The notes beneath the pieces were generated by a model. It saw nothing but the letters and a program-made list of their open reading frames with translations, was not told the DNA's origin and did no database searches. This document shows, piece after piece, positions 2,118 through 57,611 of a stretch of DNA of 64,000 nt. Made by a program: the position numbers and the translations under genes. Position 1 is the stretch's first letter. Every line of letters begins with the position of its first letter. Source of the stretch: a phage; the sequence record NC_042307.1; one strand, given 5' to 3'.

Positions 2118-2150
2118 AGCCAGGTTGCTAGTCGACCTGGCTTTTATTTT
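2118..2150 (+). terminator. rho-independent terminator downstream of nrdD
   Basis: Stem agccaggt/acctggct with 9-nt loop followed by tttatttt. Confidence 0.6.
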
Positions 2151-2200
2151 ATTTGCTTTCAGCTAAAAATTTATGTATAATAGATTTATAAATTTGAGAG
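2151..2200 (+). promoter_or_regulatory. T5 early-type sigma70 promoter (TTGCTT -35, 17-bp spacer, TATAAT -10, conserved ATAAATTTGAGAG downstream box)
   Basis: -35 ttgctt at 2153-2158, -10 tataat at 2176-2181, then agatttataaatttgagagg; same architecture as promoters at 9887, 10913 and 12130. Confidence 0.65.
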
Positions 2201-2209
2201 GAAAAGACT

Positions 2210-2587
2210 ATGAAAGTAAAACCCTATATCATTGTTTCAACCTGTGGGAGCTACCAATTAGCGGTAGAAACCATAGAAGAAGCTATTTTTGCTGCTACTG
2301 GTGATTATTCTCATCTTGAGGGGGTTGGTTATCCTACCATTATTGGTAATTGGGTGGAAACTAATTTAGATGTTAATCCATATAATTCTGATTATGAAGA
2401 TGAAGAAGAGGTACAGGATAACATTGAATTTGTATATAAAAGAATCTTAAGTATCTATGAGCATCAGGGCAGCCCTATTGAGTATGTGGATATTACTGAA
2501 GTAGCTAAGAAGCGCCTTAAATACGTTTATGCCAATTTTTCAAATGAAGACCTGGAAACAGTTGCAGTGGAGTTTAATAATGACTAA
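2210..2587 (+). CDS. hypothetical protein
   Basis: 125-aa ORF immediately downstream of promoter with GAGAGG RBS; acidic middle region; no recognisable motif (not NrdG: no CxxxCxxC). Confidence 0.6.
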   Translation: MKVKPYIIVSTCGSYQLAVETIEEAIFAATGDYSHLEGVGYPTIIGNWVETNLDVNPYNSDYEDEEEVQDNIEFVYKRILSIYEHQGSPIEYVDITEVAKKRLKYVYANFSNEDLETVAVEFNND

Positions 2588-2786
2588 GAATGTAAAACAC
2601 CTTAAATATCGCTTAATTTACAACGGACGTATGGAAACAGAAGACCTAGCTCAATTAGCTATTAATTCTAATGAGGTCACGGTACGTGCGTTAGCTATTG
2701 AAAAGTTGCGGGCTTCTTATGAAAGTCGTATTATGGAACTAGAGGAGAAACTTTATGGCATTCTCGAAGCCGATGCTACCCGATAA
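2580..2786 (+). CDS. hypothetical protein
   Basis: ORF track 2529..2786; start moved to in-frame ATG at 2580 that overlaps the stop of the upstream gene (ATGA-type junction). Confidence 0.4.
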   Translation: MTKNVKHLKYRLIYNGRMETEDLAQLAINSNEVTVRALAIEKLRASYESRIMELEEKLYGILEADATR

Positions 2787-2976
2787 TGGCTTAAATGCTG
2801 CGCTGGAAAATGCATTGATGCAGCAGTGGGAGGCTGGATATAAGGATGGGGTTGAATCTTGTGCAAAAATAATGGATATTATGGCTAATTCTGTAGTTGG
2901 GAAAGCCCATCCAGAAGTATCTGATATACTCCATAACCTTAGTAAAAACTTCAGAGAGCAGGTGAAAAATGCGTAG
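2755..2976 (+). CDS. hypothetical protein
   Basis: 73-aa ORF in operon context; start uncertain (overlaps upstream ORF). Confidence 0.4.
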   Translation: MAFSKPMLPDNGLNAALENALMQQWEAGYKDGVESCAKIMDIMANSVVGKAHPEVSDILHNLSKNFREQVKNA

Positions 2977-3793
2977 ATTAATTATTATTAGTGGTGCAGG
3001 TTTGAGCGTTGAAAGTGGTGTACGAGCCTTCCGTACTGATACTGCTAGTGGTAAAGCATTGTGGGATGATTATGACTTAGAAGAGGTATGTAATATTCAT
3101 GCCTTTCGTGGTAGCTTTTACCACAAAACTCACGAGTTCTACAACAAACGTCGTGAAGAGTTAGAAACTGTTGAACCCAATCTTGCACACTTGCGTATTG
3201 GTGAGTGGTATAAACAATACCCAGGTCAAGTAGTAAACTTGACTACCAACGTTGATGACCTTATTGAGCGTGCTGGTGTTCCGCATAGTGACATTCTACA
3301 TATTCATGGGTATTTAAAAGAGGTTGTTGTAGCTGACAGCTACAATAGCAGTAATAAACGAGTTATTGATGTTGGGTATAGCTCTATTGACCCGGATGAT
3401 TATAAATGGGTTAAACCTAATGTAATCTTCTTTGGGGAGCATGCTCCAGCGTACGCAGAAATGTACAATATTTTTGATGGTATTACTAGTCAAGATATGA
3501 TAGTTGTAGTTGGTTGCTCTAACCAAGTAATTAATTTCTACTGGGAATTATTTCCTATTCTTAACCGTACTGCTGCGAAACTTATGGTAGTTAACTACTA
3601 TGATAGTGCCCTAGCGGCAGAACCAGGCTATCAAGGTATGACTCGTAGTGATATGTACCAACTGGAAGATCGTGGTATTCCTTACTGGAGTAAAGGTGCG
3701 GTAGATGCTTTCAGTGACCCTGGTTTTATCGCTCGTGTAGAAGCTCATCTAGAGGGTAGACCTTATATGCCGGGGAAACAGACATGTCCATAG
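2969..3793 (+). CDS. Sir2-family (CobB-like sirtuin) protein lacking the Zn-ribbon cysteines
   Basis: Motifs SGAGLSVESGVRAFR (cf. sirtuin GAGIS.ESGI..FR), TTNVDDLIERAG, ILHIHGYL (catalytic HG), NVIFFGE, VVVGCS; no Cys between HG and FGE motifs. Confidence 0.75.
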   Translation: MRRLIIISGAGLSVESGVRAFRTDTASGKALWDDYDLEEVCNIHAFRGSFYHKTHEFYNKRREELETVEPNLAHLRIGEWYKQYPGQVVNLTTNVDDLIERAGVPHSDILHIHGYLKEVVVADSYNSSNKRVIDVGYSSIDPDDYKWVKPNVIFFGEHAPAYAEMYNIFDGITSQDMIVVVGCSNQVINFYWELFPILNRTAAKLMVVNYYDSALAAEPGYQGMTRSDMYQLEDRGIPYWSKGAVDAFSDPGFIARVEAHLEGRPYMPGKQTCP

Positions 3794-3966
3794 TTAAATC
3801 TGTGTATACACATCCTGATGATATATTTGTATGGGCGGATGGTAGTTGGTGTTATCGATGTGAGCTATGGGAAATGGACTATAAATCTGATGACTATGGT
3901 GTCATATATGTTGATACGGTTGAGTATGATACGTTCTTAGCAAGGGACAAAAATGGAAATAAGTAA
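3784..3966 (+). CDS. hypothetical protein
   Basis: 60-aa ORF with overlapping start/stop junctions to neighbours. Confidence 0.4.
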   Translation: MSIVKSVYTHPDDIFVWADGSWCYRCELWEMDYKSDDYGVIYVDTVEYDTFLARDKNGNK

Positions 3967-4459
3967 TACTCCAATTATTTTTCTAGATATTGATGGGGTG
4001 CTCAACTCGAGCATCTCTCATCACCATGCACCTAATGATGAAAAGATTTTCTTTGGAAGTGACTGGGTTTTTAAACCGCTTCTCAAGGCTTTTCAGGACT
4101 TTATTCGTCCTTCTCCAATAATGATTGTTGGGGTATCTTCATGGTTCTCTGTCAGGAATGAGATGGAGAACGTTCAGATTATGACCGGATTAGATCTTAT
4201 CGATCGTTTTCTTGGTACAACGGATTTTACTGGTGGTGGGCTATCTAGGGGTAATTCTGTTCTTCGCTTCGTTGAAAAGTATAAGCTCAAACATTGGTGT
4301 GTGCTGGATGACGCTGGTGCTATGATGTATCAGTATCCAACGGTTATAGTCAATGGTAGAACTGGAATAAATCTTCAAGATTTAAGAGCTGTTAGCTATA
4401 TGTTAGAATTTAGTCCAGATCTTGAAATGTGTAAAGCCCTACAACAATTTAAGGTGTAA
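3953..4459 (+). CDS. HAD-superfamily hydrolase/phosphatase-like protein
   Basis: N-terminal IIFLDIDGVLN (HAD motif I DxDG) and downstream LDDAG. Confidence 0.55.
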   Translation: MEISNTPIIFLDIDGVLNSSISHHHAPNDEKIFFGSDWVFKPLLKAFQDFIRPSPIMIVGVSSWFSVRNEMENVQIMTGLDLIDRFLGTTDFTGGGLSRGNSVLRFVEKYKLKHWCVLDDAGAMMYQYPTVIVNGRTGINLQDLRAVSYMLEFSPDLEMCKALQQFKV

Positions 4460-4461
4460 AT

Positions 4462-4890
4462 ATGTTTAATAATGTATTCTCTAAAGAAGCTAACCCAATA
4501 TTGGTTAATTTTTGGCGTACTCTTCCAGACAACCTGTACAATGAGGCTATTAATGCCCTGAAAATATGGTGTGATAATAATGAAATCTCCTTTGCTTTTA
4601 GAGGTGAGGTTGAAGAATCTCCCTGTATTGGTTTAATTGTGCAGGTAGAGGATGGTTTTGAAGAGATTGTCGGCTGGAAAGAGTTAGATGAAATGGGCTT
4701 GGTTTTTGCATTAAACTATAAGCTATTTATGCCCAATAAACACCGTATTGTTGTTAACTATAAAACCGGTGAATCTCCTGGTTTTCAAGTTAACGAACAT
4801 TACGGTTGGTCTTACTCACCGGAAGAGGTAAATGATGGTATCCAGAAACTTCGTCGTTTTGGTTATCAAATTCCGGGTTTAACTGCCTAA
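4462..4890 (+). CDS. hypothetical protein, tandem paralog 1
   Basis: 142 aa; shares conserved blocks with next ORF (FAFRGEVEESPCIGL vs FTFPEQQIDDPCVGV; C-terminal YQIPGL vs IYVPGL). Confidence 0.6.
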   Translation: MFNNVFSKEANPILVNFWRTLPDNLYNEAINALKIWCDNNEISFAFRGEVEESPCIGLIVQVEDGFEEIVGWKELDEMGLVFALNYKLFMPNKHRIVVNYKTGESPGFQVNEHYGWSYSPEEVNDGIQKLRRFGYQIPGLTA

Positions 4891-4899
4891 GGAGGCACA

Positions 4900-5292
4900 A
4901 TGGAACAAGTATACTGGCGTCAGATAGACCCTAGTTTGGTGAAGCGTGCGGAGAAGCTGCTACAACGTTGGTTGGGGGTAAGACAAGCCTCCTTCACTTT
5001 TCCGGAGCAGCAAATAGACGATCCCTGTGTTGGTGTTTTTCTATCAGGCTACGCTGGGGAATGGGAATTGGATTGGAATGAATTGTCTGCTATAGGTCTA
5101 ATTGTTGCCCTAAATTTCTCTTTGTTCCATCCACGTGGTTTGGCCATATGTCGTGTGCCTGAGGACGGTTGTTCGCCCCATCTTTTACAGGTGGAAGATG
5201 ATATTTGGGAGTACACTCCAGATATTCTCAAAGAAGCCAAAGAACAATTAAACCGTGTTGGGATTTATGTTCCAGGCCTGAATGATGAATGA
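4900..5292 (+). CDS. hypothetical protein, tandem paralog 2
   Basis: 130 aa; paralogous to 4462..4890; GGAG RBS upstream. Confidence 0.6.
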   Translation: MEQVYWRQIDPSLVKRAEKLLQRWLGVRQASFTFPEQQIDDPCVGVFLSGYAGEWELDWNELSAIGLIVALNFSLFHPRGLAICRVPEDGCSPHLLQVEDDIWEYTPDILKEAKEQLNRVGIYVPGLNDE

Positions 5293-5431
5293 TTTTTATT
5301 AGCTGAACTTTGTAATCCGGGCTATTAGTGCTCGGATTATTACATAATCTTTTCAGTCGATTGATAGTCAAAATAAATTGTCGTTGACAATTTGGATGGA
5401 TTATGTAATAATATATGTATTGGAGGTGAGG

Positions 5432-5884
5432 ATGTCATTCACACAGCAAGAACTTTTAGATAACTTCCGGTATGAAGAGGGTAAGTTATTTAGAACTACA
5501 GGAAGAAATGCAGGGAAAGAATGTTGTGTTTCTACGGGTAACGGATATTATCGTATATCTCTAGGGAATAGGACTATGCTTCGGCATAGAGCAATATTTT
5601 TAATGCATCATGGATACTTACCTGATTTAGTAGACCATGTGAATACTATAAAAGGTGATGATCGTATTGAAAATCTTAGAGAGCAGACAGTATCCGGTAA
5701 TCTAAGAAATATCAAATATAAGAAAGGAATGCATGTTTACCCTTCTGGTAGTAAGAACTGGCAAGTGGTATTTACTATTAACCGTAAACGTATAGTTAAA
5801 GGAACATATGACAACTATGAGGTTGCATGTTCTATGGCCAAGATGTTTAGAGGTCAATTATACGGTAGGGAATCAATCCAGTAA
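5432..5884 (+). CDS. HNH homing endonuclease
   Basis: N-terminus MSFTQQELLDNFRYEEGKLF parallels MITQERLKELFDYSPETGEF of other HNH copies; HNH core HRAIFLMHHGYLP...DHVN; start set at ATG 5432 preceded by GGAGGTGAGG. Confidence 0.7.
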   Translation: MSFTQQELLDNFRYEEGKLFRTTGRNAGKECCVSTGNGYYRISLGNRTMLRHRAIFLMHHGYLPDLVDHVNTIKGDDRIENLREQTVSGNLRNIKYKKGMHVYPSGSKNWQVVFTINRKRIVKGTYDNYEVACSMAKMFRGQLYGRESIQ

Positions 5885-57146: not shown

Positions 57147-57262
57147 GTAAAAATAAAAGAGGGGAAGTATATGAAAGTTGGATAAATTCTTTCGGATTCG
57201 GGACTGTGTTATTCTTTATCTTTGTACTCTTTTGGTTAGCAGCTATGGCGGGGTGGTTATAA
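57143..57262 (+). CDS. small membrane protein (39 aa)
   Basis: MSKNKRGEVYESWINSFGFGTVLFFIFVLFWLAAMAGWL; ATG overlaps HNH stop; one predicted TM helix; not in ORF track (below 60 aa). Confidence 0.4.
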   Translation: MSKNKRGEVYESWINSFGFGTVLFFIFVLFWLAAMAGWL

Positions 57263-57366
57263 TGGAAGTAGTAATTATTGCTTTACTAGTTGTGGTAATT
57301 ATAGGGCAGTGCATCTTAGATAACCACTTAGCTCGTATCGAACGTAAGCTGCGGGGAGACAAGTAA
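57262..57366 (+). CDS. small membrane protein (34 aa)
   Basis: MEVVIIALLVVVIIGQCILDNHLARIERKLRGDK; internal ATG of track ORF 57178..57366; overlaps upstream stop. Confidence 0.4.
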   Translation: MEVVIIALLVVVIIGQCILDNHLARIERKLRGDK

Positions 57367-57611
57367 TGTTTAGTTTTGTAGCTATCTTCATTATCGGGGT
57401 ACTTGCGGGAATCTTCGGAACACTCGGGGCTATTAACAAACATCGTGAATATATTGCGGGGGTATCGCGAGAGCTTTCGGAAAGAGAGCGGAGGTTTGCG
57501 GAGAAACGTGCGGAGTTTGAACGAGAAGGGTCTGAGGGATCTCGGGCGTCGCGGAGGAGATTTCGTATGTCAGAATCAGGAGACAAGCCGGTAGACCGGT
57601 GTTCCTCCTAA
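57366..57611 (+). CDS. small membrane-anchored protein (81 aa)
   Basis: N-terminal TM helix MFSFVAIFIIGVLAGIFGTLGAI followed by charged Arg/Glu-rich tail; TAATG overlap with upstream ORF. Confidence 0.5.
   Translation: MFSFVAIFIIGVLAGIFGTLGAINKHREYIAGVSRELSERERRFAEKRAEFEREGSEGSRASRRRFRMSESGDKPVDRCSS

Follow-up and report, generated by a model that had tools for sequence, protein, structure and literature searches.

The gene at positions 2969-3793 (+) of a 64,000-nucleotide stretch of phage DNA (sequence record NC_042307.1; the whole stretch is called the window below) encodes a genuine sirtuin that lacks the usual zinc-binding cysteines. To judge from its residues, the protein is probably catalytically competent and NAD+-consuming, and our leading model, a tentative one, is that the phage sirtuin is a NAD-dependent RNA-end repair enzyme resembling Tpt1/KptA. 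The gene itself, the zinc-less nature of its product and its membership in a described clade were known before, and a functional hypothesis for the clade has been published. The present analysis adds a co-variation of zinc loss with a Gln to Thr exchange, the retention of the class-III anion-binding pair, an invariant cysteine in the pocket, a distribution complementary to that of KptA, and selection data set against a knockdown result.

The open reading frame (ORF) is intact and comprises 274 codons, as seen in the ORF list and its translation. An earlier reading of the window, made from the letters alone (the sequence-only reading), had named the protein a sirtuin on the strength of five motifs in the right order, and all five were located in it: GAGLSVESGVRAFR at residues 9-22, followed in canonical order by TNVDDLIERAG (93-103), HIHG (111-114), VIFFGE (152-157) and VVVGCS (179-184). 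The NAD-binding residues (G9-A10-G11, S13, F21 and R22, together with G182, S184 and the ribose-binding N209), the catalytic histidine (H113) and the FGE motif (F154-F155-G156-E157) are all present, and the protein carries the complete superfamily signature (GAGxS...FR, the N and D of TQNID, the HG histidine, FGE, GxS and the ribose Asn). The TQNID motif itself reads T92-T93-N94-V95-D96 (TTNVD), with Thr in place of Gln at residue 93. Profile searches kept the protein among the sirtuins, since Pfam SIR2 (PF02146) matched with E=5.5e-24 and 85.5 bits (cutoff 24) over profile positions 1-178 of 180 and was the sole Pfam match at E<=1, and PHROG 2162, 'Sir2 (NAD-dependent deacetylase)', matched with E=5.9e-120.

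Canonical sirtuins hold a CxxC...CxxC zinc ribbon between the catalytic HG and FGE motifs. The window sirtuin has three cysteines (C41, C183 and C273), and the claim of the sequence-only reading that none lies between HG and FGE proved correct, with 0 in the 40 residues that separate G114 and F155 (residues 115-154) and 0 in the same interval of all 38 homologs of at least 50% identity. Alignment with E. coli CobB and the nearest zinc-bearing relatives places 'VVADS/YNSSN' and 'DYKW' at the CxxC...CxxC positions. A structural four-cysteine zinc site, which is typical of the SIR2 family and not demanded by the Pfam definition, is absent from the protein.

We used the 38 homologs as input for an AlphaFold2 model of the window sirtuin, which was confident (pLDDT 89.2, pTM 0.88) and predicted a sirtuin fold with a Rossmann domain and a small domain, well folded across the former zinc module, where a conserved IGY motif is found. 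By sequence, the best solved relatives were E. coli CobB (E=2.5e-17), Sir2Af1/Af2, SIRT5 and Sir2Tm, and in the fold comparison the closest structures were all protein deacylases. The values for the ADP-ribosylating types were 14.7 (SirTM) and 14.0 (SIRT6), and the SIR2 proteins of defence systems were the most distant sirtuin-fold matches (PsSIR2 13.4, HerA-Sir2 12.3, ThsA 12.2, Avs5 9.5). The defence SIR2 NADases (ThsA, DSR1/2, SIR2-HerA, pAgo-SIR2, Avs5) share a sirtuin-type Rossmann core and the NAD+ substrate with the window sirtuin, and the sequence-only reading had made the likeness to zinc-less immune effectors of this kind its central analogy. This part did not hold: no SIR2 defence model of PADLOC (E<=1) and no defence SIR2 profile of Pfam matched, the protein is single-domain, and it is neither fused to a sensor or partner (SLOG, HerA, pAgo, STAND, TIR) nor in an operon with one, its neighbours being HAD_SAK_2, DUF7415 and small ORFs (Pfam, PHROG). 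What stands of that reading is a zinc-less phage sirtuin whose function it had left undecided. The NCBIfam CobB/deacylase models also remained far under their cutoffs (101.9 bits vs 243; 91 vs 320). By sequence comparison the protein thus classes as a canonical-type sirtuin that is neither a member of an immune SIR2 family nor a CobB equivalog, and falls into a zinc-less subclade that is specific to phages and descends from class-III (CobB/SIRT5-like) sirtuins.

To place the zinc loss, we drew on an exhaustive search of 1.84 billion representative proteins, which returned 2,976 sirtuin relatives at E<=1e-3. The best 150 of these 2,976 were mixed, with zinc-less members beside members with a perfect CxxC...CxxC, and the (D)IGY motif of the small domain was common to both kinds. 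The shared IGY and the alignable cysteine positions therefore indicate that the zinc ligands were lost within a small-sirtuin clade that kept the fold of the module. Among 140 cluster representatives, H113 and N94 were invariant (140/140), and zinc loss co-varied with the exchange of Gln in TQNID, mostly for Thr: a non-Gln residue was found in 40 representatives without and 13 with the zinc site, and Gln in 10 without and 77 with it (odds ratio 24, Fisher p=1e-14, n=140, no phylogenetic correction). Domain fusions (WG repeats, RHS repeats, tandem SIR2) occur among remote relatives of the family and have no bearing on the phage clade.

We then mapped the pocket by alignment to CobB. CobB, SIRT5 and Sir2Af1 share with the window sirtuin the fold, the NAD motifs, the catalytic His and a Tyr-x-x-Arg pair, which in class-III sirtuins holds the anionic (acyl) group. 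The CobB pair Y92/R95 corresponds to Y58/R61, and the residues of the CobB acyl-lysine tunnel (I131, V187, F190, V219) correspond to V95, V152, F155 and V187, which are conserved. At about 24-26% identity, the window sirtuin differs from CobB by an extra C-terminal segment of about 60 aa, by the missing zinc cysteines, by TTNVD for TQNID, by V-I-N-F for the V-Y-P substrate loop (the conserved Pro being Asn or Asp in the clade), and by an invariant Cys (C41) at the position of CobB A76. In the 38 homologs, invariance extends over G9, A10, G11, S13, F21, R22, C41, Y58, R61 and R62, and further over T92-T93-N94-V95-D96, H113, G114, F154, F155, E157, G182, S184 and N209. Comparison of the window gene with ten T5-like orthologs gave a dN/dS of 0.04-0.10, and the gene is under strong purifying selection. 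Because of the motifs, their invariance, the dN/dS and the pocket changes, the protein reads as an active enzyme under selection that consumes NAD+ and has a changed substrate site.

The DNA of the window region shares 88-94% identity with that of many T5-like phages, and the sirtuin is 95% identical over 271 residues to T5 'cobb: putative transferase' (AY587007; alias T5.102), which lies in the same place between nrdD and the origin-binding protein gene, has the same flanking genes and is annotated as 'putative transferase' and as 'Sir2 NAD-dependent deacetylase' (PHROG 2162). A tblastn search with the window sirtuin matched 999 of 50,697 phage records, and the match covered at least 80% of its length in 839 of the 999. 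The carriers include the model phage T5 and other T5-like phages, Vequintavirus (rV5-type), phi92-type, Mydovirus-type, KVP40-type Vibrio and jumbo phages, and the records are mainly Escherichia, Salmonella and Klebsiella phages of 100-150 kb. Since these records spread across many phage groups, the sirtuin is a very widespread and long-annotated gene, with an annotation in hundreds of phage genomes. Phages of the rV5 and phi92 types are used in therapy cocktails. KptA homologs, in turn, were found in 98 phage records, from jumbo Erwinia, Dickeya, Klebsiella and Serratia phages, Clostridioides phages and Bacillus phage G, and neither 'Escherichia' nor 'Salmonella' was among the ten organism names listed for them. 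The distributions of KptA and of the phage sirtuin are complementary at this coarse level.

Two earlier papers bear on the window sirtuin. Skliros et al. 2016 noted that the Sir2/CobB proteins of KVP40, phiSt2 and phiGrn1 lack the zinc site and listed T5 as a carrier of the gene (PMC5107563). These proteins resemble the window sirtuin (39% identity over residues 3-209) in being zinc-less and in having a non-Gln TQNID motif (TANVS), and differ from it in being more distant, in having another C-terminus and, in KVP40, in having uncharacterised genes and topoisomerase II as neighbours. Iyer, Burroughs, Anantharaman & Aravind 2022 defined a distinct viral sirtuin clade, were the first to propose an RNA-repair model for it, and predicted a KptA-like removal of RNA 2'-phosphate (PMC9503650, section 3.7.3). 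They gave three configurations: sirtuin with 2H, Nudix, cREC and PIN genes in jumbo phages; sirtuin with RNA ligase, cREC, kinase and MazG genes in the rV5/Mydo type; and sirtuin with a Swiss-army-knife HAD in the SP15 type (T5-like; Escherichia phage SP15) (PMC9503650). The SP15 region shares 90% DNA identity with the window region and has the same sirtuin and HAD pair, and the window sirtuin is homologous to the exemplars and stands in a HAD_SAK neighbourhood without an adjacent macro domain, so that it belongs to the clade of Iyer et al. without any difference. The sirtuin of the Vequintavirus Murica is 56% identical to it in amino acids. In the PhageMaP paper, the mentions of 'Sir2' for Bas63 proved to concern a host defence system and not a phage gene.

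To compare gene neighbourhoods, we called ORFs and clustered proteins in 61 IMG/VR loci together with T5, Murica and KVP40, which gave 19 sirtuin lineages. This reconstruction reproduced the second (rV5/Mydo-type) and third (SP15-type) configurations of Iyer et al. The T5-like order is nrdD, small ORFs, sirtuin, a small ORF, HAD, two DUF7415 genes and then the origin-binding protein gene; in the window, the HAD_SAK_2 gene likewise stands two genes downstream of the sirtuin, in one overlapping string. In five lineages of Vequintavirus, Mydovirus and Erwinia-phage type, the sirtuin lies inside a cluster with an Rnl1-type RNA ligase (PF09511), which also holds an AAA_33 kinase, a calcineurin-like phosphoesterase and a MazG-like protein; the cREC cyclic-phosphate-processing domain (PF20274) was found in the Vequintavirus- and Mydovirus-type clusters and not in the Erwinia-phage type. 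In a phage of 608 kb, the genes that flank a zinc-bearing relative encode an RNA ligase (E=2.7e-28), a HAD-like protein with DxDxT and a P-loop protein. This recurrent, independent linkage of the sirtuin to RNA-end-healing genes supports the RNA-repair model and is accounted for by none of its rivals, and the distribution complementary to KptA, the intact catalytic residues and the lack of a macro domain next to the sirtuin support it as well.

According to this model, the substrate of the phage sirtuin would be RNA and not acyl-lysine. At a damaged end or junction of an RNA (tRNA), the enzyme would take off a phosphate, or ADP-ribosylate it, with the help of NAD+, thereby serving as a functional analogue of the RNA 2'-phosphotransferase Tpt1/KptA. 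Together with the HAD_SAK_2 phosphatase, whose gene is co-transcribed with its own, it would form an accessory module of early genes that mends RNA cut by host nucleases. In sirtuins and Tpt1 alike, a substrate oxygen attacks C1'' of NAD+ with loss of nicotinamide, and the ribose 2''-OH then forms a 1'',2''-cyclic species. This parallel in two-step chemistry makes the model plausible by analogy; Tpt1/KptA has the ART superfamily fold and no homology to the window sirtuin, the likeness lying in the proposed chemistry alone. In place of a carboxylate, the retained Y58/R61 pair could bind a phosphate. Family, catalytic residues, zinc loss, context and selection were observed; that RNA is the substrate and the chemistry Tpt1-like is what we infer. 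A bolder version, possible and rather doubtful, sees in the zinc-less phage sirtuins with TTNVD the first sirtuins to have RNA as physiological substrate. As Rossmann-fold analogues of Tpt1/KptA, they would spend NAD+ on taking off or ADP-ribosylating a 2'- or terminal phosphate in the repair of tRNAs that host anticodon nucleases have cut; Tyr58/Arg61 would be repurposed from succinyl-lysine to phosphate, and the Gln to Thr exchange and zinc loss would mark the switch. If Tpt1-like repair were true, sirtuin chemistry would extend from protein lysines to nucleic acids, and a NAD-dependent arm would be added to the answers of phages to tRNA-cleaving defences.

Several observations weigh against the RNA-repair model. 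Two T5-like lineages (L058/L059; L055) have the sirtuin and DUF7415 without the HAD gene, and in lineages 2, 3, 5 and 10 (phages of about 150 kb) the neighbours are unannotated or DNA methyltransferase-like and not of the RNA-repair kind. The Rnl1-type ligase was found in 14 Salmonella-phage records, compared to 289 with the sirtuin, and T5-like phages are without it, so that no complete heal-and-seal pathway is visible in the window phage. The name HAD_SAK_2 is itself a computational prediction, and we found no experimental characterisation of any member of the phage-sirtuin clade in the literature. The conserved tunnel residues and the deacylases as closest structures make a protein substrate fully plausible. 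In a T5 CRISPRi-ART screen in a laboratory host, T5.102 was 'Not Fit' (p=0.72; PMC11879866, supplementary file 16), as was the HAD gene T5.105, and DUF7415-b (T5.107) was marginally 'Fit' (p=0.02; PMC11879866). This screen appears insensitive, because the origin-binding protein gene T5.108 also scored 'Not Fit' (PMC11879866). The result for T5.102 counts in favour of the model: together with the strong purifying selection, it fits a function needed only under certain conditions, such as stress or host defence.

Next in standing, and on balance unlikely, is that the phage sirtuin is a CobB-like NAD-dependent lysine deacylase, probably for acidic acyl groups (succinyl, malonyl). In the early phase of infection, proteins of the host or of the phage would be remodelled by it, among them perhaps metabolic enzymes (Acs is one example) or the machinery of transcription. 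The database annotations give this reading, and the tunnel and the closest structural relatives described above agree with it. The low scores against the NCBIfam CobB models, the exchanges of Gln for Thr in TQNID, of Pro for Asn/Asp in the V-Y-P loop and of CobB A76 for an invariant Cys, and the fact that the host has CobB already argue the other way, and the recurrent linkage to genes for RNA ligase, cREC, kinase, phosphoesterase and HAD_SAK_2 would be left unexplained. If true, a deacylase would give direct access to the way in which phages rewire the acylation of host proteins.

A mono-ADP-ribosyltransferase that modifies host proteins or DNA/RNA bases or ends for host takeover, after the manner of T4 Alt/ModA/ModB or of SirTM and SIRT6-type sirtuins, is in our judgement improbable. 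The SirTM family is defined by linkage or fusion to a macro domain, which the window sirtuin lacks: Pfam revealed no macro domain among its ten neighbours, and this speaks against a toxin/antitoxin pair of the SirTM type.

We consider still more improbable an idea that goes back to the sequence-only reading, in which a zinc-less SIR2 would interfere with the NAD+ pool or with signals derived from NAD, whether as a NADase or by countering Thoeris, DSR or Sir2-HerA. Consumption of NAD+ follows from the family chemistry, and the NAD+-rebuilding pathway that T5-like phages carry (NARP3 of Bas30; PMC13464706) links phage NAD supply and use. In a phage of about 120 kb (L063:5057-7705, IMGVR_UViG_3300033696_000004), moreover, a nicotinamide phosphoribosyltransferase (NAMPT) gene is directly followed by the gene of a zinc-less TTNVD sirtuin, downstream of which lie genes for endonuclease VII, nrdD, nrdG and a glutaredoxin-like protein; this would pair nicotinamide salvage with nicotinamide release. 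The adjacency to NAMPT is equally expected for any nicotinamide-releasing enzyme, however, and no NAD-biosynthesis gene was found within 14 kb upstream of the sirtuin locus in T5. An enzyme that destroys NAD+ would oppose the phage-encoded regeneration of NAD+, the counters known against NAD-depleting defences work by rebuilding NAD+ or sequestering signals and not by consuming NAD+, and the distance from the defence SIR2 proteins in profiles and fold has been given above. Finally, a decayed, catalytically dead or purely structural remnant, with zinc loss as lost function, is hardly credible: the zinc module normally stabilises the small domain of sirtuins, and the 'Not Fit' knockdown would agree with a remnant, but the low dN/dS, the full-length gene in most matching records, the invariant catalytic residues and the confident model through the former zinc module with its IGY motif contradict it.

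One pairing is accounted for by none of these models. In a 279-kb phage (L062:7001-8198, IMGVR_UViG_3300001199_000001), a zinc-bearing relative is followed 1 nt later by a nucleoside 2-deoxyribosyltransferase-like protein (PF15891, E=1e-33), a combination that points to nucleotide or NAD processing.

The sequence-only reading had placed the sirtuin in an early operon with nrdD and a HAD phosphatase, and only the second of these partners could be kept. Directly 3' of the nrdD stop codon (2108-2110) stands a terminator-like hairpin, at a place where T5 has an annotated rho-independent terminator, and behind it a promoter-like site at the position of the annotated T5 early promoter T5P31, after which come a ribosome-binding site (GAGAGG) and the start codon ATG at 2210. 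The promoter-like site is missing from the motif-scan list because its -35 fits 3/6 positions. Read together, hairpin and promoter-like site would set nrdD apart from the gene string of the sirtuin, which runs over eight consecutive genes (2210-5292) with overlaps or gaps of at most 10 nt. The second gene of the string probably starts at ATG 2580, since its PHROG match begins at residue 19, and this start overlaps the stop of the first gene. The 73-aa gene overlaps the sirtuin start by 8 nt, and the 60-aa gene shares 10 nt with the end of the sirtuin gene and 14 nt with the beginning of the HAD gene, an arrangement that suggests coupled translation. The hairpin downstream of the two DUF7415 genes is probably the 3' boundary of the unit, with a terminator annotated at the equivalent position in T5. 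The layout in the window thus predicts an early operon that joins the sirtuin to the HAD gene, apart from nrdD.

Table. Features of the predicted sirtuin transcription unit and its boundaries in the window
Feature	Position	Strand	Details
Terminator-like hairpin	2118..2142	+	10-bp stem, 6 GC pairs, T-tract; sequence scan
Promoter-like site	2153..2181	+	-35 TTGCTT 2153-2158, 17-nt spacer, -10 TATAAT 2176-2181; read from sequence
First gene of string	2210..2587	+	125 aa; phrog_11748; T5 ORF094/T5.100
Small gene	2529..2786	+	phrog_5236; T5 ORF095/T5.101
73-aa gene	2755..2976	+	phrog_5827
Zinc-less sirtuin	2969..3793	+	274 aa; ortholog of T5 cobB/T5.102
60-aa gene	3784..3966	+	phrog_5116
HAD-superfamily phosphatase, 'Swiss Army Knife' RNA-repair type	3953..4459	+	168 aa; PF18143 HAD_SAK_2; phrog_1818; T5.105
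DUF7415 protein a	4462..4890	+	142 aa; PF24187; phrog_2502; T5.106
DUF7415 protein b	4900..5292	+	130 aa; paralog of protein a; T5.107
Hairpin	5312..5340	+	11-bp, poor U-tract; dG -19.7 kcal/mol, z -4.1

The HAD protein matched PF18143, 'HAD domain in Swiss Army Knife RNA repair proteins', with E=3.7e-19, and its DxDxV motif reads DIDGV at residues 12-16. Its C-terminal half was also matched (E=1e-57) by phrog_18062, which bears the label 'Sir2 (NAD-dependent deacetylase)' and matches the real sirtuin weakly (E=3e-6). The homology or fusion of Sir2 and HAD hinted at by this label was rejected as a labelling artefact, BLASTP of the sirtuin against the HAD protein giving E=0.19. The label looks like a propagated mislabel, as a consequence of which PHROG-based annotations of SP15, Baret and slur09 carry 'Sir2' twice. 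For DUF7415 protein b, the predicted model was confident and had no significant fold match among solved structures.

Compared to T5, the window is equivalent apart from having a single phrog_5116 ORF and extra homing-endonuclease-type ORFs. T5 has two tandem copies of phrog_5116 (T5.103/T5.104; T5 57243-57601), which are unannotated in its 2005 GenBank record. ARAGORN detected no tRNA gene in window positions 1-64000, so that the T5-like tRNA cluster must sit outside the window. The first of the extra ORFs, of 93 aa (16-297, +), overlaps the nrdD start at 284, carries a T5orf172/MUG113 domain (PF10544, E=2e-11) and covers the C-terminal part alone of an endonuclease PHROG with 576 positions; it resembles a short or remnant gene of the homing-endonuclease type, at a place where T5 has a promoter region only. 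The second is an HNH_3 endonuclease gene (5378-5884, +; PF13392, phrog_99) inserted behind the sirtuin operon and ahead of the 929-aa origin-binding (D5-like) gene, with a near-consensus TTGACA-17-AATAAT site at 5384-5412. T5 has no such gene there, and the gene is probably a mobile homing endonuclease.

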